Part shown: positions 4,859 through 33,297 of the stretch, in pieces
Layout: each line of letters starts with the position of its first letter
How positions within the stretch are numbered: position 1 is the first letter of the stretch
DNA from: a virus
Length of the DNA: 64,000 nucleotides
Virus record (IMG/VR): IMGVR_UViG_3300021364_000009
Location: 32,572 to 96,571 of that record
Direction: 5' to 3' (one strand)
The notes under the pieces: generated by a model
Told to the model about the DNA's origin: nothing
What the model saw: the letters and a program-made list of their open reading frames with translations, nothing else
The model's database searches: none
Position numbers and translations under genes: made by a program

Positions 4859-5172
4859 TGGTACACCCCTCTAGTGTTCTTTATTTCTTTGAGCACAATG
4901 TCTATTATCTCATCTGTCATAACTTCTTCTGAGCTGAAGAATTCTACTATTTCTTCAGAAGGAGAGCCGACTAAAGCTACCATTTCTTTAGTACCATCTT
5001 CGTCAGAGTGTACGACCACTTTTAAGTGTGGAAAGTAAAAATTCACACCCAACTTTGTCCCTATATTAATCCAAATGCTTATAAGCTCTTCTGGACTTTT
5101 AGCTTCCTCCATTAGAGTCTGCATAGTGCTATCGAATATGGCTTTTAGCTCTTCCTTAGAAAACAATGACAT
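4855..5172 (-). CDS. hypothetical acidic protein
   Basis: AAGGAG SD, fits the operon. Confidence 0.7.
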   Translation of the reverse strand: MSLFSKEELKAIFDSTMQTLMEEAKSPEELISIWINIGTKLGVNFYFPHLKVVVHSDEDGTKEMVALVGSPSEEIVEFFSSEEVMTDEIIDIVLKEIKNTRGVYH

Positions 5173-5182
5173 TGGTATCTCC

Positions 5183-5695
5183 TTATGTGAGTTTGCTATA
5201 TAACTTCTGCCATTGTTCCAAAGATTGAAGTTCTAGTGAACTTATGAAGTCATATGCTTCCCACATTCTTATTGCTTGAGATAACTCTATTTCTCTATTG
5301 TCGGTTTTGTTTTTCAACAGCGTATATACTCGCTTGGAGAGCACTTCTATTTCGGAAGGGTTTGTGTTTTTTTCAGAGTACACGTCCTTCTTTTTTTTGA
5401 AGACCCACTCACTAAGTCCGTATTTCTTCTCCAAAACGGAGCAAGAGTCATTGAAAGAGAGTCCTTCTTTTTCCACTACGGTAGAAATAGCATCTCTGCT
5501 TTTTCCACATGCAAAGCAAAACCAACTATTCGTTTGAGGATAGACTCTAGCTGAGGGTGCATTATCTGAACCGTCACCATGCAAGTCACATCGGAATTGT
5601 TGTTCTCCACCGTCTACATGGACATCGTAGCCGTACTCTTGTAGTACGGCTTCTATGTTTATTTGCTCTTTGATTCTTAAAGCACGTTTGTTCAA
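5183..5695 (-). CDS. stand-alone DnaG-type CHC2 zinc-finger (primase Zn-binding domain) protein
   Basis: CDLH...PSARVY...WFCFACG...DAI..V...EGLSF pattern; no TOPRIM domain; AAGGAGG SD before TTG. Confidence 0.8.
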   Translation of the reverse strand: MNKRALRIKEQINIEAVLQEYGYDVHVDGGEQQFRCDLHGDGSDNAPSARVYPQTNSWFCFACGKSRDAISTVVEKEGLSFNDSCSVLEKKYGLSEWVFKKKKDVYSEKNTNPSEIEVLSKRVYTLLKNKTDNREIELSQAIRMWEAYDFISSLELQSLEQWQKLYSKLT

Positions 5696-5709
5696 CTTGT
5701 ACCTCCTTT

Positions 5710-5722
5710 ATATCTTCTTTAT
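5710..5722 (+). promoter_or_regulatory. putative late promoter motif
   Basis: ATATCTTCTTTAT upstream of an isolated plus-strand gene. Confidence 0.55.
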
Positions 5723-5754
5723 ATGTTTTGATTATTAAAGTTAAAGGAGAAGCT

Positions 5755-6309
5755 ATGAGAAAGAAAATTGCGAACGATCTGCTTAAGCCCTTAGAGACAT
5801 ATGGCAAGTATGAAGGTGTTTTAGAGTATGACACATACACTCTTGGCGATGACTTGGGTGTCACCTTCTATGGTAATGGAGAACAGATCGGATATATTCG
5901 AGGACAGAAGCTTGACTATAAGAACTTCCAATCTTTGCAGAAAGTTAGAGATTGTTATCCCGATGTTGTGAACTTAGCAGAGATGGGTGGTAGTGATGTG
6001 TGTGACAGGAAAAAAGGAGTCTCCTGTCTTTTACCTAGAGTTTTCATGATTACAGACTCAGATTTAGATACGAACGACAATCAAGGAACCTCGCTAAGAG
6101 GCACAGGCATTGGTCGGATGATGTATGAAGCTATCTTCACAGAGTTTTATGAAGACCAAAAAAATAAGGATTTCATAGCTGTACCTATGAAATGTATTTT
6201 TGGTCGAAGCAGTACTTCTTCAGATGCTCAGAGAGTGTGGAACTCTCTTGCTAGGACATTAGAGTCTTCTAATGATCTTGTTCTTGTAGACAGACCTTTG
6301 ATCTTTTAG
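5755..6309 (+). CDS. GNAT-like acetyltransferase-fold protein (paralog of 830..1342)
   Basis: LRGTGIGRMMY loop; TSSDAQRVWNSLAR; AAGGAG SD before ATG 5755. Confidence 0.55.
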   Translation: MRKKIANDLLKPLETYGKYEGVLEYDTYTLGDDLGVTFYGNGEQIGYIRGQKLDYKNFQSLQKVRDCYPDVVNLAEMGGSDVCDRKKGVSCLLPRVFMITDSDLDTNDNQGTSLRGTGIGRMMYEAIFTEFYEDQKNKDFIAVPMKCIFGRSSTSSDAQRVWNSLARTLESSNDLVLVDRPLIF

Positions 6310-6650
6310 TTTTTTTCCCACCAATCGTCAAAACCCCCAAATGGGATGAGGTCATATATTTCTACAGGAATACTACCCACACAGTCATAACTGAACCATT
6401 CTCCTGAACCTCTCCACTCTTTGAGTTCTTCGTGGAGTTCTTTCTCTCTCCACCCCAAACCCTCTAAAGATGCAACTATTCTCAGAGTATTGGGGTTTCC
6501 TGTCTGTAAGTTTTTGAGTCTTCTTTCAGGATGTTTAGACCTCCCTATCTTTATTTCTCCCGTGTTAGAAGATTGGATGAAATAAAGATAGTCGCCTTTC
6601 CTTTCGAGCTTCCTTGCTCTGTAGTTTTTCACTAGCTCTTCATATTTCAT
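6306..6650 (-). CDS. GIY-YIG superfamily (T5orf172/MUG113-like) protein
   Basis: YLYFIQ...IKIGRSKHPERRLKNLQTGNP...EKELH...GEWF. Confidence 0.85.
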   Translation of the reverse strand: MKYEELVKNYRARKLERKGDYLYFIQSSNTGEIKIGRSKHPERRLKNLQTGNPNTLRIVASLEGLGWREKELHEELKEWRGSGEWFSYDCVGSIPVEIYDLIPFGGFDDWWEKN

Positions 6651-6652
6651 TC

Positions 6653-7882
6653 TTAGACTCCAAAGAAATTCTCTTTAGCCCATTTAGGTTCAGGAGCTTC
6701 TCCTTTGCTCCAAACCCAAATAGGCTCACCATAAACAGAACCACCTACTTCTCCCATCCTATCGCCAGGTCTTTTGTTCATCCTATACCCGATAACACCT
6801 TCATACGTTGCTCCTATTGACTCCATATAACTCAACATAGGTTCACAGATAGAAGCATTTACATCGGTTCTTGAGTGTCCCTTATCTGCGATGTTGATTG
6901 CAATTCTCCCCCCTTGGACTAAGCTCTCCCAAGCTAGTTTTAAACTAGGTAGAAAAAACAGATCGAGCCATTCTTGGTTGGTTTTATATCGTTTCCAACT
7001 TTGTGTCTCTTCTTCAGAGTATTTCTCAATGTTGAAATAAGGGGGAGAGGTAAATACAAAGTCGAACTTACGATCTCCAAGATCAGCATCTTCAGCGGGA
7101 GAGCAAATAAACTCTGTTTTCTTTCCTGTGTTGCAGAATTCAGAAATAGAGTTGTAGTGTGGGTGGAGCTTTGAGTTAGGGTCAATACCTACATAGCTCT
7201 CTGCGTTGGAAGCGTGGAACCCAACGAGTCTGTCACCCCAACCTGCGGAGAAGTCGATCACATTTTTAGCGTCAAAGAAATCGTAAAGTGTTTTTGCACA
7301 TGAAGGTTTGAACTGAGACGCCATGTAGTTTCCTAATCTCAGACAATCTCTAAGTTGCTTATTTCCGACACCATTTTTCAAAGCGTCTTTCTCGGAAAGC
7401 GTCCAAAGAACTCTTAATACATATCGAGTCTTTGATTTGCATCCGTCTCTAGTCCATTCTCTCATCGGGCTTTTGTGCTCAAAATGAGCACACTTCATTC
7501 TTTCAATGTGTGTGTGCTGATCTGACACTTTTAAACCATGAGATGAAGATTGGAAGTAACACGGCTTATCTAAATATGTAGTGGGCACATCAGGGATGGT
7601 TCTTAGACAAACCCAATCTCCAATCTCTATTTCTTTGCTCTCTTGTTTCAGACTATTAAAGTCTTTGTTTAGCTTATTGTGTGTGTATTTTCTTTCGGGG
7701 AAAGGTAGGTTATTTTCTTCTATCAGACTAGAAAGATGTTCGATTATTTCCTTCTTCTCGAAGTTATGTTTTATTTCACTCCAAATATGAGGGGGGATTG
7801 AAATCTCGTCTTTTTCTATAAGACTGTAGTCTGAGAGCTTTTTTGTTGTTTCTTTTTCTGCACTTAAATCAAATAATTCCAT
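6653..7882 (-). CDS. DNA amino-methyltransferase (m4C/m6A), array copy 1
   Basis: Motif I DFSAGWGDRL, motif IV FTSPPYF. Confidence 0.9.
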   Translation of the reverse strand: MELFDLSAEKETTKKLSDYSLIEKDEISIPPHIWSEIKHNFEKKEIIEHLSSLIEENNLPFPERKYTHNKLNKDFNSLKQESKEIEIGDWVCLRTIPDVPTTYLDKPCYFQSSSHGLKVSDQHTHIERMKCAHFEHKSPMREWTRDGCKSKTRYVLRVLWTLSEKDALKNGVGNKQLRDCLRLGNYMASQFKPSCAKTLYDFFDAKNVIDFSAGWGDRLVGFHASNAESYVGIDPNSKLHPHYNSISEFCNTGKKTEFICSPAEDADLGDRKFDFVFTSPPYFNIEKYSEEETQSWKRYKTNQEWLDLFFLPSLKLAWESLVQGGRIAINIADKGHSRTDVNASICEPMLSYMESIGATYEGVIGYRMNKRPGDRMGEVGGSVYGEPIWVWSKGEAPEPKWAKENFFGV

Positions 7883-7884
7883 TT

Positions 7885-9063
7885 TTAAACTCCGAAGAAA
7901 TTATCTTGTGACCATTTAGGTTCGGGGGCTTCTCCCTTACTCCATATCCAAATAGGTTCAGCAAAAGGCTTTTCTGTTTTCTGGCCGCCTCGTTGATAAA
8001 GTTCATATCCAATCGCACCTTCGTAGTGGGCGTTCAGTTTTTCCATGTGTTTGAGCATAGGCTCACATAAGTTTATGTTCTTTTTGTCATTGATATTAAC
8101 ACATACTCTCCCACCCTCAGATAAATGATTCCAACATTTCGTTAGAGTTGGAAGCAAGAACCCCTCTAACCATTTTTCAGGTGTTGCGTATCGCTTCCAA
8201 CTCTGTGTTTCTTCTTCAGAGTATTTCTCAATGTTGAAATAAGGTGGAGAGGTGAACACAAAGTCGAATACTCTATCTTCAAGATCAGCATCTTCAGCAG
8301 GAGAGCAGATAAACTCTGTTTTCTTTCCTGTGTTGCAGAATTCAGAAATAGCGTTGTAGTGTGGGTGGAGTTTAGTGTTTGGGTCTACTCCCACATAAGA
8401 AATAGCATTTGAGGCGTGGAAGCCAACGAGTCGATCTCCCCAACCTGCTGAGAAATCGAGTACATTTTTAGCGTCAAAGAAATCGTATAGCCATTTTGCA
8501 ACCACAGGTCTAAACTGTTGAGCCATATAAGAGTGGCTCATGATTGCTCTCCTTAAAGTTTGACTATTGATGCCACCTCTAGTGTAAGGTTCATCGCTCC
8601 TAAAACCAAAGAAGCCTCTGAGGAAGTTATTCTTTTTATCTGGATTTTGCCATTCATAGATAGGGGACTTACTCGAATGATACCCACAGTTCATTCTTAC
8701 TATTTGAGTGTATTGGTCTGAGATAGTTTTTCCCCTATTATTTCCTGAAAATAATAGGTGTTGGTCTAAGTATTTATTCTCTAAGCCTCTTACTTGTCTT
8801 GGATTTTCCCACTCTATTTCTTTCAGCTCTATTTCTGACTGTTTTAGTTTCAACCAGTCTTTTTTAACTTCGCTTAGTTCATACTCTCGTAGAGGAAAAG
8901 GTAGCTTCTTTATTTCTTCTGATAGGTGTGCTTTTATTTCTTCTTCAGAGAAATAATGGAGCAAGTTATCCCATTCTTTTGTAGAGATATAAAGACGGTT
9001 CTCTATTACGGTAGAGTACTCTTCTATCGGTTTTTTGGGTTCTCGTTCTAAATCAAACAGCAT
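7885..9063 (-). CDS. DNA amino-methyltransferase (m4C/m6A), array copy 2
   Basis: DFSAGWGDRL and FTSPPYF. Confidence 0.9.
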   Translation of the reverse strand: MLFDLEREPKKPIEEYSTVIENRLYISTKEWDNLLHYFSEEEIKAHLSEEIKKLPFPLREYELSEVKKDWLKLKQSEIELKEIEWENPRQVRGLENKYLDQHLLFSGNNRGKTISDQYTQIVRMNCGYHSSKSPIYEWQNPDKKNNFLRGFFGFRSDEPYTRGGINSQTLRRAIMSHSYMAQQFRPVVAKWLYDFFDAKNVLDFSAGWGDRLVGFHASNAISYVGVDPNTKLHPHYNAISEFCNTGKKTEFICSPAEDADLEDRVFDFVFTSPPYFNIEKYSEEETQSWKRYATPEKWLEGFLLPTLTKCWNHLSEGGRVCVNINDKKNINLCEPMLKHMEKLNAHYEGAIGYELYQRGGQKTEKPFAEPIWIWSKGEAPEPKWSQDNFFGV

Positions 9064-10236
9064 TTAGACTCCAAAAAAGTTTTCTAATTTAAACTTAGGT
9101 TCGGGGGCTTCACCTTTACTCCATATCCAAATAGGTTCACAGAAAGTTCCGATTAAACCAATACCATTCCTCTTGTTGAGCTTGTAGCCAACTACACCCT
9201 CATAAGTAGCTCCCAACGACTCCATATGTTTCAACATAGGAGTACATATATCTTCACCTTTTTTATCTGCTATATTGATCGCTATTCGACCCCCTTCAAC
9301 GAGACAACCCCAAGACTTACTAAGCATGGGAAATAGAAAGCCCTCTAACCATTTATCTGTAGTAGGATAACGCTTCCAACTCTGAGTGTCTTCTTCACTA
9401 TATCTCTCTATGTCAAAGTAAGGTGGGGAAGTGAATACAAAGTCCACTTCAACCCCTGTAAGATCAGCATCTTCAGCGGGAGAGCAGATAAACTTAGTCT
9501 CTTTACCTGTATTACAGAAATTGCTGATCTCTTCGTAGGGTTGGTGTAGCTCAGAGTTAGGGTCTATCCCTATGTAGCTGATCGCATTAGAAGCGTGGAA
9601 GCCTACAAGTCGATCTCCCCAACCTGCTGAAGTATCTAACACTCTTTTCGCACCAAAGAAATCGTAGATAGTCTTAGCACATGAGGGCTTGAACTGACTC
9701 GCCATGTAGGTGTGCATTTTTAATGCTCGATAAAGAGTGCTTTGGTCTATGCCTTTAGAGGCTAACTCGCTCTTGAGTATGCCGAACAAACACCTTAGAA
9801 ATGAATTTTTTTTGTCGCAGTTCTCCCATTCAAATACAGGAGCTTTCCCTGAGTGGTAGCCACATTTCATACGCATAATCTGAGAGTGTTGGTTAGACAC
9901 TTTCAGACCATAATTACCACAGGTGAACACTACAGGCTCACCTCTATAGAGTAAGGGTGTTTCTTTACTTTGTCGGGGGGCTAACCATGACTCTTTTGCG
10001 TAGCTTATTTCTTCTGCCTTTAGTTTTGCCCAGTCAGACTTAACCTCTTGTTCTGTGTATTCTCTAACAGGGAAAGGCAAGCCTTTGATTGCTTCGGCTA
10101 GTTGAGGCTTTATTTCTTGTTTCGAGTAATGGTCTAGCATAGCCAACCATTGGCTAGGGGGGATTACTAGCTTGTCTCCTATTATTTTTATGTACTCTTG
10201 GAGAGGTTTCTTTTCAGTGGTGTAATCAAATAACAT
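9064..10236 (-). CDS. DNA amino-methyltransferase (m4C/m6A), array copy 3
   Basis: DTSAGWGDRL and FTSPPYF. Confidence 0.9.
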   Translation of the reverse strand: MLFDYTTEKKPLQEYIKIIGDKLVIPPSQWLAMLDHYSKQEIKPQLAEAIKGLPFPVREYTEQEVKSDWAKLKAEEISYAKESWLAPRQSKETPLLYRGEPVVFTCGNYGLKVSNQHSQIMRMKCGYHSGKAPVFEWENCDKKNSFLRCLFGILKSELASKGIDQSTLYRALKMHTYMASQFKPSCAKTIYDFFGAKRVLDTSAGWGDRLVGFHASNAISYIGIDPNSELHQPYEEISNFCNTGKETKFICSPAEDADLTGVEVDFVFTSPPYFDIERYSEEDTQSWKRYPTTDKWLEGFLFPMLSKSWGCLVEGGRIAINIADKKGEDICTPMLKHMESLGATYEGVVGYKLNKRNGIGLIGTFCEPIWIWSKGEAPEPKFKLENFFGV

Positions 10237-10311
10237 CTCTTAAACTCCAAAAAAGTTTTCTAATTTAAACTTAGGTTCGGGGGCTTCACCTTTACTCCAT
10301 ATCCAAATAGG
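9068..10311. repeat. 68-bp exact direct repeat (9068..9135 = 10244..10311) at the 3' ends of MTase copies 3 and 4
   Basis: actccaaaaaagttttctaatttaaacttaggttcgggggcttcacctttactccatatccaaatagg at both positions. Confidence 0.95.
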
Positions 10312-11436
10312 CTCACAAAACATAAGACTTGTGTCTCCCATGTTTTTTCCTGGTCTCGCACCCATCTCATATCCGATAACACCTTCATATGTAGCCCCTA
10401 GTGTTTCCATGTGTTTTAACATAGGCTCACATATTTCTTCTCTCTGACCCTGTGTATATGCGTCTGCAATGTTGACACAAATACGCCCACCTTCAGATAA
10501 ATGATTCCAACATTTCGTTAGAGTTGGAAATAAGAAACCCTCTAACCATTTTTCCATTTTGGGGTATCGCTTCCAACTTTGTGTCTCTTCTTTAGAATAT
10601 CTCTCCAAAGTGAAATAAGGTGGAGAGGTAAATACAAAGTCGAATACTCTATCTTCTAAATCAACGTCTTCTGCGGGAGAACAGATAAACTCTGTTTTCT
10701 TTCCTGTGTCACAGAATTCAGAAATAGCTTCATATTTTGGATGGAGTTTTGAGTTAGGATCAACACCCACATAGCTCTCTGCATTTGAGGCGTGGAAACC
10801 AACAAGGCGATCACCCCAACCTGCTGAGAAATCGAGCACATTTTTAGCGTCAAAGAAATCGTAGATTACTTTTGCAGACTGAGGTTTGAACTGAGAAGCG
10901 ATGTAGCTTCTCATAGCTAAAGCACTCTTCAATGCTTTTGGTGTGACATCCTTATTGAACATCACAGGATTAAGTAAGAATTTGAGGAAAGACTTCTTTT
11001 CACTTGTCCATGCAGACCACGGTGAGCGAAACCTCTCATGCCCTACTTCCATTCTCTCTTCTTGTGTGAAAAAATCAGAAACAGAAGCCCCTATTCTCAG
11101 AGCTTGTGGCACATATAAAGATAGCTCTTTATACTGAGTAGGTATTTCTTCAGAGATACGCTTGCACGACCAACTTCCTTCTTGGACAGAGGCGTCTTTG
11201 CTTTGAAGTAAACTAAACTCGTTTCTTATTTCTTCAAGGTTATATTCTCGGTATGGGAATTTGATTTTCCCTTCATCAATTAAAACGATCATTCTTTTCA
11301 TTATTTCTTCGTTGCTGTACGAAGAAATAATGTTTTGCCACAGACCTCTAGGTATGAATATTTTTTGGTCTATGCCAAATATTTCATTTTCATCTAAGAG
11401 GTTTGGTTTTTTTATTTCTAAGTCTTCAAATAGCAT
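10240..11436 (-). CDS. DNA amino-methyltransferase (m4C/m6A), array copy 4
   Basis: DFSAGWGDRL and FTSPPYF. Confidence 0.9.
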   Translation of the reverse strand: MLFEDLEIKKPNLLDENEIFGIDQKIFIPRGLWQNIISSYSNEEIMKRMIVLIDEGKIKFPYREYNLEEIRNEFSLLQSKDASVQEGSWSCKRISEEIPTQYKELSLYVPQALRIGASVSDFFTQEERMEVGHERFRSPWSAWTSEKKSFLKFLLNPVMFNKDVTPKALKSALAMRSYIASQFKPQSAKVIYDFFDAKNVLDFSAGWGDRLVGFHASNAESYVGVDPNSKLHPKYEAISEFCDTGKKTEFICSPAEDVDLEDRVFDFVFTSPPYFTLERYSKEETQSWKRYPKMEKWLEGFLFPTLTKCWNHLSEGGRICVNIADAYTQGQREEICEPMLKHMETLGATYEGVIGYEMGARPGKNMGDTSLMFCEPIWIWSKGEAPEPKFKLENFFGV

Positions 11437-12951
11437 TTATCCGTCCAAAACATCAGCTAATGGGTCTTTTTTCTGCTCTCCCTTTTTCCCTTGATATGTG
11501 GGGATAGAGTGCATGGGGATATTGAGGATTCTACCAGAAGGCCAAGCAGGTTTAGCTTCAAAAGGCTCAAACCCTCCACCCTGTCTGACTTTCAGACATT
11601 GATATTTGATCGCTCCTTTTTCTCTCATGTCATCTCCGTACCAACAGGAAATAACAACGTCAGAAGAACGCTCTGCTTCGTTAGCATAAGAGAGGTGTGT
11701 AAGATTGTAAGAGCCTCCATTTTTCTCAGCGGCTCTAAATCCTTCACGGGAAATCTGAAATAAACAGAGAAGAGGGATGCCTTCACCTCTGTTAAAGGAG
11801 AGAGCTAGTTTCTTTAAGTCTCGTATGACCTCATTTAGTCTCTCTGTAGTACTAGCCACCCATCTTCTTGATGAAACTAAGAGAGCGTGATCTACAACCA
11901 AGACTTTTGCAGGTCTTCTTTGATGTAACACTTCAGCCTTAGTCTTAATATCTTCGACTGTAATGTCCATCGCATCGGGGTCTGCTATTTCAAATTGAAT
12001 AGACCCATACTCTCCACTCTCTACACCTTCTCTTAAGTCCTTAACGACATCCTTCAGCAAGTCGATTTCGTCTTCTGTGAGTGTGCCATTCTTAATAGAG
12101 TCAGGGTCAATCCCCACGTCAGGTGTTTGTTGTTTTTGGATACCTAACGCTATTCTCTTATCTCTAAACTTCTTGTGCATAGAGTGGAAAGCATAAATAG
12201 TCTCTCTGCACTGCTCATAGTGCATTTCTAGCTGAAAATAAATGCTGTTTAGACCTTGATAGACAGCTTGGTTGTATATCCAATTCATCGTAGTCTTGGA
12301 TTTCATGTGTGCGGTAAACCCTGCCACCATATAAAGCTCTTTTTTACGGAACCCTCCGATAGCATCGTCTATGCACTTCAGACCTGTCTTAGGGAGTACG
12401 CCAACATCTGTATCTACAGTTTTCTGATAATGCTCCCAAAAAGCGTCTTCGTCGTTGAGTACATCCCCACCTAACTTCGCCCCAAAGGTTGGGGTGAGTA
12501 GATCAGAAAGCTCTTTAGAGAGGAACTTTGTAGCATCTCTGACTCCTTTCAGAGTAAAAGTGTTCCGCCCTTCTTTTATTTCTAGTCCTTGTCTTGCAAT
12601 CGTTTTAGCAGAAGATATTGCCTCTGCTAATGCCATGTGTCGTGCGTCCTCTACACTCTTTTCAATCTCAAGAATAAAGTCGCCACGATATATGACAGGA
12701 GTGCTAGAAATCTGTCGGATGCGATCTGCTTCATCAAAGTCATTGTTAGAGTCAAAATATTGTATGACAACATCTTGCTCAGGCAGATGTCCGTGAGTAG
12801 ACGCAAAAGTCTTAATAAAGTCATAGATTTTTACGTCAGTGGGTTGGTCGAATTGAAAAATACTCTCTCGAAGAGAAATATAATTCTGAAACATCAAGTC
12901 GTCTTTGTCGCCAACTCTAGTGTCGGGGAGTATTGCTCTTAATATCTTCAT
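11437..12951 (-). CDS. dnaB: DnaB-like replicative helicase (SF4)
   Basis: TGL..ID..IGGF, Walker A variant GFTAHMKS, FQLEM, VVDH, LFQISRE, ERSSDVVI, KVRQG. Confidence 0.85.
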   Translation of the reverse strand: MKILRAILPDTRVGDKDDLMFQNYISLRESIFQFDQPTDVKIYDFIKTFASTHGHLPEQDVVIQYFDSNNDFDEADRIRQISSTPVIYRGDFILEIEKSVEDARHMALAEAISSAKTIARQGLEIKEGRNTFTLKGVRDATKFLSKELSDLLTPTFGAKLGGDVLNDEDAFWEHYQKTVDTDVGVLPKTGLKCIDDAIGGFRKKELYMVAGFTAHMKSKTTMNWIYNQAVYQGLNSIYFQLEMHYEQCRETIYAFHSMHKKFRDKRIALGIQKQQTPDVGIDPDSIKNGTLTEDEIDLLKDVVKDLREGVESGEYGSIQFEIADPDAMDITVEDIKTKAEVLHQRRPAKVLVVDHALLVSSRRWVASTTERLNEVIRDLKKLALSFNRGEGIPLLCLFQISREGFRAAEKNGGSYNLTHLSYANEAERSSDVVISCWYGDDMREKGAIKYQCLKVRQGGGFEPFEAKPAWPSGRILNIPMHSIPTYQGKKGEQKKDPLADVLDG

Positions 12952-13619
12952 AGCTTCATACTCCTACGTTTTGGTTGTGTGCTAGTTTCAGTCTTTCTTC
13001 CCATGAGATTTATTCTTTCCCAACCTTCAATAGACTCGTCTACTGCTCTCGACCAAGAAATATGTCCTTCTTGTAAAGGGCGGTTTGGCTCTTCTACAAT
13101 CCATGTAGGTTTAGAGAGATGCTCTCTAAGTTCTATTGTCTCTACGAGTACTTCAGGCATGGCACTATTTCTTGCCATTTTGACTCCAAGTCTCACGATT
13201 AAGAGTGAGGGAGACTCTGCTAAGTCTTCAAGAGATTGGACACGAATGTTTCTTTGGAAATCGGGGTCTATTATTTCTGACTGAGCTAGTTGAAGATTAC
13301 TGAGCCAAGCACTCATGAGCGTTGCATCTGAAACTACTTTAACAAACTCTTCGGGCTTTTTTCGGTGTGCAAGAGCACTCCTCAGATTGAGCATCAATGA
13401 GCTTTTGTCACCAACAATGACAACATTGTCCTCCATCTTTCCTTTTAAAGAAGATGCTTTTGTTAGCCTAGTATCCGTTAAGCCTTTCCAAGCTCTCTCC
13501 GCTTGGATATTTAAGGCTTTTTTTACAGCACAACTACAGGGTATTGCGTATGGCATACCCATGTAGCCATCGTCTTTTTGGAGATACCCTGCACCTCCAC
13601 ATTTTTTACACATAGACAT
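12948..13619 (-). CDS. DnaC/DnaI-like helicase-loader homolog, degenerate ATPase
   Basis: N-terminal CxxCxGxGY...CxC Zn motif, C-terminal IELR....KPTWIV, adjacent to DnaB; GGAGG SD before ATG 13619; no Walker A visible. Confidence 0.55.
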   Translation of the reverse strand: MSMCKKCGGAGYLQKDDGYMGMPYAIPCSCAVKKALNIQAERAWKGLTDTRLTKASSLKGKMEDNVVIVGDKSSLMLNLRSALAHRKKPEEFVKVVSDATLMSAWLSNLQLAQSEIIDPDFQRNIRVQSLEDLAESPSLLIVRLGVKMARNSAMPEVLVETIELREHLSKPTWIVEEPNRPLQEGHISWSRAVDESIEGWERINLMGRKTETSTQPKRRSMKL

Positions 13620-15201
13620 TACGAGCGTCCTCCAATAGTCCGTCAAATAGTTCAGCAACTTCGCTTGTACCGACTTCTACTATATCGGAATCTTCGTCGT
13701 TTTTGAGTCTCTTGCCTAAAACACTCTCAATTAAGTTCATCTTATTTCTCAGAGTTTTCATTACTCTATCGTCAATCGTTTTAGGGGCTACCATATGGTA
13801 GGCAAACACCTTGTCGTGAATACTACCGATGCGGATCATCCTACCTACAATTTGAAGATAATCTCCCGCTGACCAAGGCGTGTCATAGAAGATAACCGCT
13901 TTAGCTAGTTGAAGATTGACGCCTTCAGCCGCCGCCATTGTAATAAGACAGACTTTAACTTCAGACTTTTCGTCTTGGAAAGATTTCTGAGAGGCAAGTC
14001 TTTCTTCACCGCTCTCGGCTCCTGTGATACGGCAAGTCTTGATCCCCTTGCCTTCTATTTCTGCTTCTAAAATATCGACCATCGCTCTAAAGCGAGAGAA
14101 AATAATTACTTTCTCACCCTCCAAGTCTGTAGAAATAGTCTCAATCAGAGCTTCGAGTTTCCCACTGTCTCCATCAAAGTCGAGTAAAGCAGGGTGATTT
14201 ACGATTTGTTGGCAGATCGTCACCGCTGTCAGCTTTGTCACTTCACGCTCAACTAACTCGCCAGTTTCGGGGTCTATACACTCTAAGAATCCTTCCAAGG
14301 CTTCTTTGTATTTAGTCTTTTGAGGCTTGGTTAAGTCACACTTGATTACTTTGGTGGTCAAAGGGGGTAGTTCTTTCGCTACTTCATGTTTAGGTCGCCC
14401 TAAGAAATAGGGGTCTATTATCTTTCTAAACTCCTCTATGTCTGATTTCCTATGTCCCACCACTACGGGGATTCTACGCCTACCTCCCGGAAGGATTTGA
14501 TCTCTTGTAATACAGAAATGTCGCATAAATGCGTTCTTTGTAGTGAACAGGCCGGGGACTGTGACTTTATATATTGCCCACGCTTCCATGAGCCTGTTCT
14601 TAATGATCGTGGCGGAAAGACTCCAAACTCGCTCTGCTGAACCTGCGAGATGCTTACAGACCTGATGGACTTGAGACTTATCATTCTTAAAGGCAGTAGC
14701 CTCGTCAAAGACCATTACATGACCTGTAATATTTCTGAGGGTATCAAAGTCCATACACGCAGTCCTGTACCCCATGACAATCGCTTTAGGTCCTGCGTTG
14801 TAACTTTGAAATTCTGCGTGTATTTTTTCTCTCTTCTTTTTTGTCCCTAAACACTTGAATATCTTCACTCCATTAGTGAAGCGATCAAACTCTGCTTCCC
14901 ACTGACCTACCGCAGACTTAGTAGTAAGAATGATCGCAGGAACATCGGGACGCTTATCCCAAAGATAAGAGAGAGTTGCTATTACTTGGAGCGTTTTTCC
15001 AAGTCCCGTGTCGTCACCTAGAACAAAACGAGGCATCGCTAATAAATGGAGAACCCCCTGAACTTGATATTGTCTCAGAGTTAGCGGAACACCTTGTTTT
15101 ATTTCTGACTTGAGTATCTTACTTGGAGGAGCTTTAAGGTCGCTTTTAGTCCTTACTTTCCTCAGTTTTTCAATCGTTTTGATCAGTTTTTCTTCATTCA
15201 T
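13606..15201 (-). CDS. SNF2-family (SF2) helicase/translocase
   Basis: LRQYQ, LGDDTGLGKT, FDEAT, LSAT, EKVIIFSRF, EGVNLQ, QIVGRMIRIG. Confidence 0.92.
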   Translation of the reverse strand: MNEEKLIKTIEKLRKVRTKSDLKAPPSKILKSEIKQGVPLTLRQYQVQGVLHLLAMPRFVLGDDTGLGKTLQVIATLSYLWDKRPDVPAIILTTKSAVGQWEAEFDRFTNGVKIFKCLGTKKKREKIHAEFQSYNAGPKAIVMGYRTACMDFDTLRNITGHVMVFDEATAFKNDKSQVHQVCKHLAGSAERVWSLSATIIKNRLMEAWAIYKVTVPGLFTTKNAFMRHFCITRDQILPGGRRRIPVVVGHRKSDIEEFRKIIDPYFLGRPKHEVAKELPPLTTKVIKCDLTKPQKTKYKEALEGFLECIDPETGELVEREVTKLTAVTICQQIVNHPALLDFDGDSGKLEALIETISTDLEGEKVIIFSRFRAMVDILEAEIEGKGIKTCRITGAESGEERLASQKSFQDEKSEVKVCLITMAAAEGVNLQLAKAVIFYDTPWSAGDYLQIVGRMIRIGSIHDKVFAYHMVAPKTIDDRVMKTLRNKMNLIESVLGKRLKNDEDSDIVEVGTSEVAELFDGLLEDARNVYV

Positions 15202-15232
15202 ATGTCCTCCATTTCAGCATAGAGGACATATA
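15199..15232 (-). promoter_or_regulatory. RNA hairpin sequestering the SD and AUG of the SNF2 gene
   Basis: Perfect 10-bp inverted repeat 15200..15209/15222..15231, extendable to 14 bp with two G-U pairs on the minus-strand RNA; the 3' arm contains GGAGG and the start codon. Confidence 0.7.
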
Positions 15233-15237
15233 TAATA

Positions 15238-15711
15238 TTAAGGGAGGTTTTTGATGAAGATTTTGATCAGTTTCCTATAGGGTATACCGTTGGTGAGCTT
15301 TAGGTACTTGTGCTTTAAGAGATCGAAAGCCACGTTATCTAGTTCATTCTTGTCTTTTGTCTGCATATATAACTTTGCAGAAATAACGGGACTCCAATGA
15401 AGATAGACCCAGAGGGCCGCTCTTTTGTGGAGCCTGTTTATTTCTAGCTTTTGCTCTGTAGTTAATGTGCTCTCTAAGTCTCTTGAGTAAGATTTATCTT
15501 TGCTTTGATTGTGGTAGATAGTCCCAAGATGAAAAAACTCACTGCTAATTCTTAGGAGCCTTGAGGAGATGCCATAGCCATTCTTCCACCTTCGGATAGC
15601 GATTATCCTGACTAAAGGGTCTTTAGTGTCCGAAAGAGTGTTGAGTATTTCTAAGATAGCTAAATTACAAGAATGCTCTAGCAGTTTCACAATTTTTCTT
15701 GTGTTGCTCAT
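15238..15711 (-). CDS. hypothetical protein
   Basis: AAGGA SD, 157 aa, heads the minus-strand replication cluster. Confidence 0.7.
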   Translation of the reverse strand: MSNTRKIVKLLEHSCNLAILEILNTLSDTKDPLVRIIAIRRWKNGYGISSRLLRISSEFFHLGTIYHNQSKDKSYSRDLESTLTTEQKLEINRLHKRAALWVYLHWSPVISAKLYMQTKDKNELDNVAFDLLKHKYLKLTNGIPYRKLIKIFIKNLP

Positions 15712-15722
15712 AGTTTATTTAT
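15710..15722 (+). promoter_or_regulatory. putative late promoter motif
   Basis: ATAGTTTATTTAT upstream of 15789. Confidence 0.55.
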
Positions 15723-15788
15723 CCTTTTTCTATTCTTAGTCCGTTACCTGCTACCTAGTACAACTATAAACTTACTATTGGAGTCCTT

Positions 15789-16163
15789 ATGTTTAGAGAC
15801 GTAAAACCTATCTTTGTAGAGAATTCAAAAGTCCCTGTCTTTCTCAGTCGGTTTGCACCGATAGAAATAAATGCGATCACTCTTTTCTTTCTCGTTTTCT
15901 CAAAGGGAGAAATATCTGAAGAAACAAGAAGACATGAGACGATCCATTTTCAGCAGTACTTAGAGACTTTTGTGGTGGGCTTCTTGTTGATTTATATTTT
16001 TGAATATCTTTACTCTGCACTTATCAAGAAGAAAGGTTTTAGTCGAGACTCATACCTAGCCATAAGATTTGAGCAAGAAGCGTGGACTCAAGATAAAGAT
16101 GTAGACTACTTAAAAACACGGAAGCGTTTTTCTTGGTTGAATTACCCTCTCGGTGGAGAATAA
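15789..16163 (+). CDS. small HExxH zincin-like protein with TM segment
   Basis: RHETIHFQQY plus downstream FEQEA; GGAG SD. Confidence 0.65.
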   Translation: MFRDVKPIFVENSKVPVFLSRFAPIEINAITLFFLVFSKGEISEETRRHETIHFQQYLETFVVGFLLIYIFEYLYSALIKKKGFSRDSYLAIRFEQEAWTQDKDVDYLKTRKRFSWLNYPLGGE

Positions 16164-31500: not shown

Positions 31501-33297
31501 TTCACGATTTCTGAAAACCTCGAAGATGGTGTCTCAATCTCAGACATAGAGCCTCTTGGCACTGAGTATATATATACTCCTTCCGACGAGGATGTGTTAG
31601 ACATAGTATCCAACACAGATGAACCCGTTGAGACGGACTATAGATTCGCAACAGATGAAACCTTCACGGATACTGTAGTTATTTCTGATGTGATGAATGA
31701 GAGCGATTTGGTTTCTTACCAATTCAACCCCATCTCAGAAACAGACACTGTAGTTATTTCTGATGTGATGAATGAGAGCGATTTGGTTTCTTATCAATTC
31801 AATCCTGTCTCAGAAAACGATAATATTGATGTTTCAGATGAAGGTGTCAACACACAATTACAATTCTTACCTGTTCCAGACTCTGCCACAGATGACATTG
31901 TAAGTCTCCAAGATGACGCTGTTAATACACAACTTGGTTTCACATTAGATGTAGGGGACGAGATTTCGGATGTGACCTCAGTCACAGACCAAGAAATAGA
32001 TTTGGATTACGCACCAACTCTTATTCTTTCAGTCCAAGTGGACGAGAGGATGGCAGATTACGATTTTACTATCACGATATACAGGGTTCCTGAAGAACAA
32101 AACCTTAACGGACCATACTACAAACTTGATTACCCTGAAATTGTGGCTTCGGGACAAACTTCTTCTTCTAATCAAACCCCTTCTTTTGAGATACGAAATC
32201 CAACTTGGTCTTCCACTATTGGTAATGACTTTAAGCTCTCTTCTATAGGGGGAGATGAAGTTATAGAATCTGGAAGCGGTGCAAATGTTTATACCAATGC
32301 AGACGCTGTGTACGATAATCATGTGATAGATTTGTATGTAGGAAATGACTCTTCAAGCCCAATACTACTCAACGAAACCTATTACATGATTATTACTTCT
32401 CAAGGGGAGAATAAGACAGACTATAACTTTAATAACCTACCCATGAACTTCAGAGTTTCCATGCAGATGGTGTTTAAGTCGCCTAGCTCTTTCAACTTAG
32501 GTACGAGCGATACTCAAGACAACATGGGTGAGTTGAGAGGTAACTATGTAGAATTGTGGGAGTCTACGACAAACACCACTCAATTTATAATGAGTGGTGT
32601 TGGTACTAACCAATTTAATTTCCCTGAAGCAGAAACAAGAGTTTGGAAGTTTGAAACTACACCACATTACGACACAAGAATAAATGGAGTTGCAACTTCC
32701 TTACCTGTCTTTAACCCTTACAATAATGGTCCTGCAAGGCTACCTATGGTGGAAGTTACAAACTTAGCTAATGCTCCTATAGACCATACTCAGATTTTCC
32801 CGCTTATCCCCGCTTATGCAACAAATGGTGGAGGCTCCGCTACTTTGTTATATATGGCTCTATTTGTTAGTTGGGACTCTACCAGCAACGAGTCTATTTC
32901 TATAGAAGAAAGAATTGCAACATCGAGCACCACATACAATGTGTCCTCGTCGAGTAGCGAGCTATACCCCCATTCAGAAAACGGCTATCTTTCTAGCGAC
33001 TTCCCAGTCACAGCTTCTTCAGGAACCTATACAATAGCTCTTAAGAGTACTCTTTCTCCTTTCACAGATCACAACTACCCGTTAGAGTTTTGGATTCACA
33101 CCCATAAACACTACCACATTACAGTGTCAGACCCATCTAAGATTTCTATCCACTTAGAGACACGATGGCTTAATGATTCGTATACGACGTATACGTCGAG
33201 CAACCCACCCCCTGTAGTCAACTTCAACACGCTAACTAACAACACCAATTCTTTCCTATTCTATATCCGATCTGATGGTAAGATATACATTAAGTGA
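28564..33297 (+). CDS. baseplate/tail protein with HxH motifs and an acidic repeat region
   Basis: Follows the J-like gene; KPAH motif typical of gp7/P2-I-like wedge proteins; HRH, HYH and HTH motifs; D-x-V-x-I-x-D repeats. Confidence 0.65.
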   Translation: MKFIPDLREDKDPLGSSSQNKKKFVDYISEQVTLNLANSTASNYNFQNYGSNQRIIFESVAKIIAEIFVDISDFEDDISFSNLRSEFIANKLLSLVFEEENIPNIKDTENLRYLCQEVVQSLLLGSTEESILKALESTKDGDLIELRQISQHVISIYSSTLKYTSNPLDTTTPMHRHVVFAKSNGVGATSAPIGKNWGEELHYHEVVDGVVQPYNGHTHDVELGISSTSLEEQENLRKVLRTTKPAHLKIGEVSSVLAERIQPPSGSTVNFKKEGGVISVVNPEKEEDFIFSLGGSYQENMRKVRVGTWENVVFGYYKDQKIRVSNALVSPLDNISVGGKIRKVSEVVEVSVADGEYVANLLRHNKTLTVNVLNGFISVDETIGNNEVFVIEGECYFAEKRAKGVSYLKAIEIRLASSVDVGEGLNEVSFLDLSWYSPTTLKYRKAVIRVREHGGFFYAELNVPQRKTFRGLPVLKEDFIIDPQYVLLEYYPYFLSIAGLSNKIVLKFENTNLTEGQEIEILCPLGEDDLINFTELNSEQFVLNASRKTRRSEKVPSPSKIATQSKYNSSSSPTVGLYPTLPTQPFNFETFKADSTSLGTFGLNTYDPTDITNSQKNQLLVGLNSKYNSYTHFTLNTYNKVSSNVSDIKDYARKTLSVFGGVVSFNALGFRPDFIVSVLDSDLREYQYEITPRGLKVFGAEEGLEVTVTSISTNPYKKSTWAKGNVLSEGQAPFDFPEKSIRETTSFPEDIMRNPQGRVLDSSDFAEDKQRLDLYHKEITSEGVVAEEIFYEDDLTRLEIKGHPFIRNIKAIKPTVKVVRPSLMTNTSNTLIGIRSVLNRREVLESEGLRIKLIPKEDIDLLSRFFFGVFLEDQVNINDADQEIPLISFKDHQDVGDVLNINDDGVSLEFNLSLEDEVPLIRDNPLVIGGDFLLEENLEDGVSISDLDPLDTVYLLTPSNEDVLDTVLVSDELIDTEFTFTISENLEDGVSISDIEPLGTEYIYTPSDEDVLDIVSNTDEPVETDYRFATDETFTDTVVISDVMNESDLVSYQFNPISETDTVVISDVMNESDLVSYQFNPVSENDNIDVSDEGVNTQLQFLPVPDSATDDIVSLQDDAVNTQLGFTLDVGDEISDVTSVTDQEIDLDYAPTLILSVQVDERMADYDFTITIYRVPEEQNLNGPYYKLDYPEIVASGQTSSSNQTPSFEIRNPTWSSTIGNDFKLSSIGGDEVIESGSGANVYTNADAVYDNHVIDLYVGNDSSSPILLNETYYMIITSQGENKTDYNFNNLPMNFRVSMQMVFKSPSSFNLGTSDTQDNMGELRGNYVELWESTTNTTQFIMSGVGTNQFNFPEAETRVWKFETTPHYDTRINGVATSLPVFNPYNNGPARLPMVEVTNLANAPIDHTQIFPLIPAYATNGGGSATLLYMALFVSWDSTSNESISIEERIATSSTTYNVSSSSSELYPHSENGYLSSDFPVTASSGTYTIALKSTLSPFTDHNYPLEFWIHTHKHYHITVSDPSKISIHLETRWLNDSYTTYTSSNPPPVVNFNTLTNNTNSFLFYIRSDGKIYIK
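31369..31818 (+). repeat. intragenic coding tandem repeats (144-bp pair at 31369/31513; 75-bp pair at 31669/31744)
   Basis: ENLEDGVSISD..PL twice; DTVVISDVMNESDLVSYQFNP(I/V)SE twice, with near-identical DNA. Confidence 0.9.

Follow-up and report, generated by a model that had tools for sequence, protein, structure and literature searches.

Orphan methylases of phages and viruses that carry several methylases are already known. The methylase sets of chloroviruses and the multispecific C5 methylases of Bacillus phages SPbeta and phi3T share three traits: several specificities are found in one virus, cognate nucleases are lacking and the repertoire varies between relatives. We describe here a tandem array of four paralogous putative DNA methyltransferases (M1 to M4), located in a 64,000-nucleotide stretch of viral DNA, positions 32,572 to 96,571 of IMG/VR record IMGVR_UViG_3300021364_000009; «window» designates this whole stretch. 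The complete record (G000) has a length of 96.5 kb and a CheckV completeness of 31%, hence a jumbo phage of about 300 kb.

In marine metaepigenomes, Myoviridae-like viral genomes display several N4-methylcytosine (m4C) motifs in varying combinations, with 0-6 methylase genes (PMC8919816). By analogy these motifs fit the reading given below; no link leads from them to the present family. The zeta-type order, i.e., a variable region followed by motif I then motif IV, is noted only for rare 5-methylcytosine enzymes in a recent classification preprint (bioRxiv 10.1101/2023.12.13.571470), and a title cited in PMC7544214 once hypothesised it for HemK. Literature searches returned no description of this methyltransferase family or of such an array.

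We infer, with a little more confidence than doubt, that M1-M4 are active DNA amino-methyltransferases, co-produced with the replisome, each acting on its own sequence and mainly directed against host restriction. They would be translated together with the replication genes and would act on exocyclic amino groups of freshly copied phage DNA, N4 of cytosine being favoured and N6 of adenine possible. Each copy would recognise its own sequence by means of its N-terminal domain (N-domain) and two type-specific loops of the catalytic domain, while a C-terminal tail would perhaps tether the enzymes to the replisome. The genes would behave as cassettes gained, lost and replaced in a slot, aided by tracts of identical sequence that the catalytic halves share and by a ribosome-binding site lying in the tail codons. 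The benefit would be a shield against host restriction at the sites that are not purged from the phage genome.

The four methyltransferases

The four genes are as follows:

6653-7882, (-) strand: M1 methyltransferase (P0001), 409 aa, intact open reading frame (ORF); N-domain about 7319-7882
7885-9063, (-) strand: M2 methyltransferase (P0002), 392 aa, intact ORF; N-domain about 8521-9063
9064-10236, (-) strand: M3 methyltransferase (P0003), 390 aa, intact ORF; N-domain about 9700-10236
10240-11436, (-) strand: M4 methyltransferase (P0004), 398 aa, intact ORF; N-domain about 10897-11436, catalytic core 10258-10896, tail and stop 10240-10257

The sequence-only reading of this DNA had reported four intact paralogues of about 390-410 aa, 0-3 nt apart, directly behind DnaB, with a similar C-terminal part and a divergent N-terminal part. 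All of this is borne out. The ORFs are spaced by 2, 0 and 3 nt, none of them has an internal stop, and the DnaB stop codon abuts the M4 start codon (gap of 0 nt). Pairwise identity is 52-55% overall, i.e., 68-78% from about residue 180 and 27-47% in the N-terminal 175 aa or so; with E-values down to 1e-128, the similarity of the four copies is far beyond chance. Motif I (D-x-S-A-G-W-G-D-R) and motif IV (S-P-P-Y), which the same reading had described as shared, do not vary among the four copies and 79 aligned homologues. More generally, every residue invariant across these 79 homologues (motif I, acidic motif II/III, SPPY) is kept in M1-M4. The N-terminal anchors that had been pointed out (FP.R.Y, RM, SP...W) are real invariant or near-invariant columns. 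The second variable loop, placed before EPIW, corresponds to the beta6-beta7 loop of the structural model, and a third variable loop is present after beta5. As had also been stated, no cognate restriction enzyme is recognisable next to the array, whose neighbours are DnaB and a GIY-YIG protein; M1-M4 are thus phage-encoded methylases of the orphan kind.

The family assignment is best seen from motif IV. A (D/N/S)PP(Y/F/W) motif located after beta4 characterises exocyclic amino-methyltransferases, and M1-M4 have it. Ser at the first position of this motif is typical of DNA N4-cytosine enzymes, and N4 of cytosine is favoured as the target for this reason. The Pfam model PF01555 (N6_N4_Mtase, gathering cut-off 26.7 bits, 221 positions) gives 23.9, 26.3, 20.8 and 29.6 bits (E 8e-7 to 4e-4), so that three of the four copies are below the cut-off. 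Weak Eco57I and N6_Mtase matches were also obtained, as well as generic matches to the cofactor-binding half. The best PHROG is family 12517, whose function is unannotated, followed by PHROGs 498, 67 and 6025 («DNA methyltransferase»). A profile search of PDB sequences gives only TTHA0409 (2zie, putative modification methylase), over the same 70 residues or so as PF01555. Some family members are named RsmD-like by the Joint Genome Institute (JGI). NCBIfam matches to CmoB and UbiE are sub-threshold and restricted to the cofactor half; they were judged generic and this identity was rejected.

With respect to the known classes, (i) M1-M4 depart from the beta-class in score and coverage of PF01555 and in motif order (IV-VIII, target-recognition domain (TRD), X-I-III in the beta-class), since in M4 motif I (about residues 202-210) precedes SPPY (271-274); (ii) the order of the core fits the gamma-class, yet the chain ends about 15 residues past beta7 and no S-subunit gene is adjacent; (iii) the zeta-type order is found, residues 1-176 forming a separate, confidently modelled part ahead of motif X, followed by a contiguous I-to-IV core. 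The zeta-like order proposed from sequence alone thus stands, on the sequence as well as on the model.

A variable DNA-modification island

The borders of the array and its frame genes are:

6306-6650, (-) strand: 114-aa GIY-YIG protein (T5orf172/MUG113; Pfam MUG113 8e-10, T5orf172 4.5e-9), right border of the island
11437-12951, (-) strand: DnaB-like replicative helicase (Pfam DnaB_C 7e-17, PHROG 19 1e-34), left border of the variable island, syntenic in 8 loci
12948-13658, (-) strand: 236-aa protein located between SNF2 and DnaB, conserved at this place in 8 loci (51-82% identity)
13606-15201, (-) strand: SNF2-family helicase (Pfam SNF2-rel_dom 3e-38, Helicase_C 2.5e-22, PHROG 62 1.7e-98), upstream frame gene

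SNF2, the 236-aa protein, DnaB and GIY-YIG are syntenic in the relatives (loci and records of other viruses carry L and G numbers below), while the content between DnaB and GIY-YIG varies. The GIY-YIG gene lies directly behind the last island gene in L012, L002/L006, L016 and L011/L014, with 61-82% identity. Its presence does not track the methylase types. That it might be a stray homing endonuclease is ruled out by this synteny and this level of identity.

L012, whose DnaB is 92% identical, is the closest relative. Its slot contains an orthologue of M4, a Dam-like D12 methylase, a methylase of the beta-class (PF01555, 2e-41), an orthologue of M2 and an enzyme combining a P-loop and a GNAT part. 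In other words, two copies of the family are replaced there by Dam-like and beta-class DNA methylases. In other relatives, family members are interleaved with thymidylate-synthase-like, PP-loop and pyridoxal-phosphate (PLP) enzymes and with a QueC-like/hydroxylase fusion. The island of the window consists of four methylases only, with no hypermodification gene. Between DnaB and GIY-YIG there is a variable DNA-modification island, of which the array is one state. Since the family is interchangeable in this slot with recognised DNA methylases and with hypermodification-type enzymes, DNA is likely its substrate; this is the strongest argument for a DNA methylase.

The partner enzymes of the relatives deserve a description. 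The P-loop nucleoside triphosphatase + GNAT acetyltransferase fusion (375-393 aa) is found in L012 (13860-15011), L003 (8802-9983) and L002 (18795-19922) and is absent from the window. It starts with (M/L)-x-L-F-(D/N)-Y, close to the M-L/F-F-D/E-Y start of the methylases, and is a candidate DNA-acylating enzyme. A trio of genes coding for a thymidylate-synthase-like protein (235 aa), an Asn-synthase/QueC-like PP-loop protein (303 aa) and a PLP-dependent enzyme (284 aa) lies between family members in L011 (11195-13605), L001 (7542-9964), L016 (11210-13620) and L015 (7831-10251). Judged from its predicted proteins, this trio looks like a base-hypermodification module. The QueC-like/Asp-Arg-hydroxylase fusion is located in L002 (15557-17620).

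Types, loops and gene conversion

Each paralogue of the window groups with orthologues of other phages in the tree of N-domains and in that of C-terminal halves as well. The orthologues are L015_10252 and L001_9965 for M1, L012_12619 for M2, L003_9977 for M3 (N-domain 86% and C-half 91% identical), and L012_10001 (83% identity) and L007_5058 for M4. M1-M4 are thus old conserved types, of which different phages keep different subsets.

The post-beta5 and beta6-beta7 loops differ in length and sequence between types and are nearly constant within a type. Both of these catalytic-domain loops co-vary with the type of the N-domain. Orthologues kept by type, together with type-specific loops, make up the pattern expected of distinct specificities, which is plausible on these alignments. 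The N-domain may be the target-recognition domain; its type-specific divergence, which co-varies with the two loops of the core, points to this indirectly.

The conserved half is a mosaic of high-identity DNA tracts shared by different pairs of copies. M1 and M2 are 97% identical at positions 721-780 of the codon alignment; M2 and M4 are 85-87% identical at positions 901-960. A third tract is:

10244-10311 = 9068-9135, (-) strand: 68-nt tract identical between M4 and M3, at the 3' ends of both genes

Because orthologues of M3 and M4 elsewhere carry different tails, this last tract arose within this genome, by gene conversion. The same process exchanges sequence between the catalytic halves.

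C-terminal tails and junctions

All close members of the family end with a Pro-rich linker and a tail of consensus Q-D-N-F-F-G-V, predicted as flexible by AlphaFold. In the window, the tail reads QDNFF in M2 and KENFF or LENFF in M1, M3 and M4. The tail is also found on unrelated island enzymes, i.e., the P-loop+GNAT proteins of L012 and L003 (both ending QDNFF(G/E)V), the Dam-like and beta-class methylases and two more proteins of L002. The endings of these enzymes are QDNFFGV, QDNFFEV, QVDLFGI, QEYFF/QEYLF and TYFGV, with Q-x-x-[FL]-F as the shared pattern of the island; DnaB, SNF2 and GIY-YIG have no such tail. A distant subfamily, located in other, mostly shorter viral contigs, stops just past beta7 and is tail-less. 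Being present on different folds and missing in the distant subfamily, the tail is a clade-specific add-on, as expected of a docking peptide. It may dock the enzymes to the replisome. The shared tails could be mere remnants of cassette recombination; this is improbable as regards the Dam-like and beta-class enzymes, the match of their tails being limited to the motif.

In L017 (10001-13587), three tandem members overlap by about 80-100 nt and have variant aromatic tails (TFFDVF, TFFDF, GFFGF).

The codons of F-G-V-stop read TTY GGA GTN TAA and contain a GGAG ribosome-binding site located 5-8 nt ahead of the next start, at all four junctions. Gly is always encoded by GGA, and the Phe codons vary between copies. 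The cassette junctions (N-F-F-G-V tail codons and stop, with GGAG) are:

9064-9081, (-) strand: junction sequence at the 3' end of M3
10240-10257, (-) strand: likewise, M4
7885-7902, (-) strand: likewise, M2
6653-6670, (-) strand: likewise, M1

With GGAG in its tail codons, each cassette brings a translation signal for whatever follows. This built-in signal and the long identical tracts of the catalytic halves thus give a simple route to the gain, loss and replacement of cassettes.

Predicted structure

An AlphaFold model of M4 was built from the 79 homologues, with a mean predicted local distance difference test value (pLDDT) of 92.6 and a predicted template modelling score (pTM) of 0.90. It displays a mostly helical N-terminal region (1-176), then a full Rossmann core in the order X-I-II-III-IV-V-VI-VII-VIII. 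Confidence is low in the beta6-beta7 loop (pLDDT 55) and in the last eight residues (tail, pLDDT 59). The core has the strands beta1-beta7 of the class I S-adenosylmethionine-dependent methyltransferase fold, more than 470 PDB chains matching at Z of 8 or above (best 16.4), and the acidic residue of motif II is invariant. The closest structural neighbours of the core are the following (rmsd: root-mean-square deviation):

aTrm11: Z 16.4, rmsd 3.1 A, 178 residues aligned
TrmN: Z 16.2, rmsd 2.4 A, 172 residues aligned
Trm14: Z 15.5, rmsd 2.9 A, 177 residues aligned
METTL5: Z 15.4, rmsd 3.3 A, 189 residues aligned

The list is flat, rank 50 being still at Z 13.4; thus the fold alone does not settle the substrate.

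A structural model had been proposed together with the sequence-only reading, as a means to locate the target-recognition elements. It does locate a separate N-domain and the variable loop; on the other side, the N-domain has no match to a known DNA-recognition fold. Folded alone (pLDDT 88), the N-domain gave no match at E of 0.001 or less in a Foldseek search of the PDB; VIA-align against 48,161 chains gave a best Z of 3.0, with no THUMP entry listed; no Pfam model matches. In a profile search of 1.84 billion representatives, the N-domain was nearly always joined to this methylase core, at its N-terminus, apart from a few LAGLIDADG-containing or longer forms. As it occurs nowhere else, there is no independent context from which a function could be borrowed.

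Two of these forms, P0156 and P0169, contain a LAGLIDADG endonuclease module N-terminal to the N-domain (intein, fusion or read-through); homing elements thus target these genes. Full-length look-alikes among the predicted viral structures of BFVD (template modelling score 0.66-0.75) include proteins of metagenomic pithovirus-like bins (annotated as N4-cytosine methylases), a Satyrvirus protein and an uncharacterised protein of salmon gill poxvirus.

Restriction-site avoidance

In the 96.5-kb record (41% GC), GCGC and CGCG are both found 0 times, for about 335 expected each on both strands from the base composition. The observed/expected ratio is 0.23 for GGCC and 0.37 for CCGG. Half of the palindromic hexamers or slightly more (33/64) are absent, and no GGYRCC or GRGCYC word occurs. 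If only words expected at least 10 times are considered, 19 of 45 palindromic hexamers are missing, versus 6 of 3,700 non-palindromic ones. GATC, TTAA, TGCA, AGCT, TCGA and GTAC are near expectation. The pattern is common to most relatives; L015 and L017, with different methylase sets, carry GCGC and CGCG freely. A set of about 12 genomes is too small to tie methylase types to site avoidance.

So extreme an avoidance of palindromes implies heavy selection by restriction enzymes, and thus methylation is neither the only nor the main counter-measure of the phage. It suggests that the methylases cover sites which are not purged from the genome.

Range of the family and copy number

More than 3,000 matches to the family were obtained in a set of 5.8 billion proteins, often as several paralogues on one contig; at least 10 paralogues among the protein matches belong to a single NCBI/Tara contig of 86,648 nt. 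The Atlas clusters of the family are 77-100% Viruses, and IMG/VR contains at least 584 loci. Among 185,579 prokaryotic species genomes, only 51 weak loci were found, the full-length ones being on phage-like contigs of metagenome-assembled genomes. The methyltransferase family is virus-only. A distant relative of 581 aa (28-29% identity) lies beside ribonucleotide reductase genes in Legionella quateirensis (L106, 5605-7350), and a match similar to it is found in L. bononiensis (L112).

Full-length copies were counted for 90 fetched loci with 10 kb of flanking DNA on each side, some of these loci being overlapping or duplicate: 57 loci have one copy, 21 have two, 5 have three, 4 have four and 2 have six, with none in 2 loci. 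Whole related records contain 3, 4, 4 and 7 full-length copies. The expandable array foreseen by the sequence-only reading is thus found when copy numbers are compared: 1-7 copies per related phage, with differing subsets of conserved types.

Genomic setting

The order in the operon is SNF2, 236-aa protein, DnaB, M4, M3, M2, M1, GIY-YIG, followed beyond GIY-YIG by a primase zinc-ribbon protein and a ClpP-like prohead protease. The SNF2 helicase is syntenic in L012, L007, L011, L016 and L002, with 76-90% identity. The 236-aa protein (12948-13658) gave no match in Pfam, PHROG and NCBIfam searches; one of its orthologues starts with a Cys-x-x-Cys motif (MSECKKCG). Among deposited phages, the nearest is a huge phage of 485 kb, also uncultured, whose SNF2 protein is 55% identical. 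Megablast of positions 5000-16000 against 50,697 phage records gave no match; tblastn gave only matches of at most 35% identity and 58% query cover, from Vibrio, Staphylococcus/Mammaliicoccus, Bacteroides and uncultured huge phages.

Alternative explanations

Several results weigh against sequence-specific DNA methylation directed at host restriction. Among solved structures, those nearest to the core are RNA amino-methyltransferases, with 0 DNA methylases in the top 50. Foldseek and VIA-align detect no similarity of the N-domain to a DNA-binding fold, and between orthologues this domain evolves faster than the core (65% vs 91% identity), so that its divergence may partly reflect weak constraint. 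The N6_N4_Mtase match is partial, covering about 70 residues from SPPY on, within profile positions 1-80 of 221. As for the tail, the sliding-clamp models PF02768 and PF09116 match nothing in G000-G002, near-complete relatives included. Lastly, most GC-containing palindromes are already purged, so that methylation may add little protection, or may concern other types of sites.

This last point is shared by an unlikely alternative, in which M1-M4 are sequence-specific DNA methylases with another purpose: self marks for a phage nuclease such as GIY-YIG, or timing of replication, packaging or late transcription. The location of the genes inside the replication operon and the constant presence of the GIY-YIG gene beside the island, seen in all close relatives, agree with it. 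On the contrary, the methylase set varies while GIY-YIG stays 61-82% identical, with no one-to-one pairing of nuclease and methylase, and the 114-aa GIY-YIG core has no obvious recognition domain. A shade less probable again are DNA methylases that do not differ in specificity, the N-domain being structural, regulatory or replisome-docking and the copies being redundant, hetero-oligomeric or active on non-canonical or hypermodified bases. The invariant aromatic and Arg residues kept in the N-domain of all types, its lack of match to a known DNA-recognition fold, and the interleaving of the family in relatives with hypermodification-type genes (thymidylate-synthase-like, PP-loop, PLP, QueC-like + hydroxylase, P-loop+GNAT) are in its favour. 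Against it, types persist as orthologues across phages with type-specific loops, and the island of the window has no hypermodification gene; neither was a thymidylate synthase (PF00303) found in the 96.5-kb record, which is 31% complete.

A substrate other than DNA appears less probable than either of these. M1-M4 as RNA methyltransferases, making N2-methylguanosine (m2G) or N6-methyladenosine on tRNA or rRNA like Trm11, TrmN, Trm14 or METTL5, with variable N-domains choosing the RNAs, would account for the best structural neighbours of the core, the RsmD-like JGI names and the weak NCBIfam CmoB matches over the cofactor half. We regard this as improbable: sequence profiles indicate DNA methylases, motif IV begins with the Ser typical of DNA N4-cytosine enzymes, slot and tail are shared with Dam-like and beta-class DNA methylases, and searches with the N-domain revealed neither a THUMP-like nor another RNA-binding fold. 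It is hardly credible that M1-M4 are protein methyltransferases like HemK/PrmC, in which a helical N-terminal domain precedes a (N/S)PPY core, with host or phage proteins as targets. The domain order is that of HemK, PrmC is among the structural matches of the core (Z 14.0) and the 581-aa relative lies in Legionella chromosomes outside a restriction-modification context; nevertheless, no specific similarity to HemK exceeds that to other Rossmann methylases, and island context and shared tail favour DNA.

If the preferred reading, DNA amino-methyltransferases of differing specificity, is taken further, the island might be an integron-like cassette store for replication-coupled DNA modification, and the family the first zeta-order lineage of DNA amino-methylases with a recognition fold unlike any solved one. 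We put this forward tentatively, as doubtful rather than probable. Each cassette would then combine a new N-terminal recognition domain, a recombination-prone core, a tail that docks the enzyme to the replisome by way of a host or phage clamp, and a ribosome-binding site serving the gene behind it, and phages could quickly reshuffle their methylation «barcode».

No categorically new biology is claimed. If the specificities are distinct, (i) the family offers a large reservoir, so far untapped, of new DNA methylation specificities, with thousands of proteins and at least 584 viral loci; (ii) the recognition module, i.e., the N-domain and two loops, is without structural precedent and looks naturally swappable. 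The island is a natural experiment on how jumbo phages combine methylation with site avoidance and, as regards the relatives, also with hypermodification. A general way to couple DNA-modifying enzymes to replication is suggested by the shared tail.

Comparison with known systems

The beta-class DNA methylases (PF01555; M.PvuII, M.RsrI, TTHA0409) share with M1-M4 the (S/D)PPY motif, then the same helper segment up to motif V/VI, about 70 residues that make up the only significant sequence match. Moreover, motif I of M1-M4 (D-x-x-A-G-x-G) resembles DPFxGSG, and genuine beta-class genes are found in the same island of relatives. On the contrary, motif I precedes motif IV in M1-M4, while the beta-class runs IV, TRD, I; there is no TRD between VIII and X in M1-M4, which have instead a 175-aa N-terminal domain with no known relative. 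The gamma-class (M.TaqI, HsdM, Eco57I family) has the same contiguous X-I-II-III-IV-VIII order, in keeping with the weak Eco57I and N6_Mtase profile matches. It differs by NPPY and by a recognition domain or S subunit after the core, whereas M1-M4 have an N-terminal extra domain and SPPY, and end about 15 residues past beta7.

The THUMP-type RNA m2G enzymes (aTrm11, TrmN, Trm14) and METTL5 are close by their core (Z 15.4-16.4 over about 175-190 residues), and in them, too, a substrate-binding domain at the N-terminus precedes a (D/N)PP(Y/F/H) core. However, M1-M4 have no sequence-profile match, no THUMP-like fold was detected in their N-domain, and their context is DNA replication and modification.

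The tail of the family may be compared with the beta-clamp peptide QL[SD]LF, since it is C-terminal, behind a Pro-rich linker, predicted as flexible and present on unrelated island enzymes. It differs in that three of the four window copies have K or L in place of Q, and no clamp gene is found with the two Pfam models in near-complete relatives.

Lastly, unlike in the multi-methylase viruses, the specificities, if real, would be borne here by tandem paralogous amino-methylase cassettes and not by several TRDs in one C5 enzyme. The cassettes of the window moreover have gene-conversion tracts in common, as well as a tail and a built-in ribosome-binding site.

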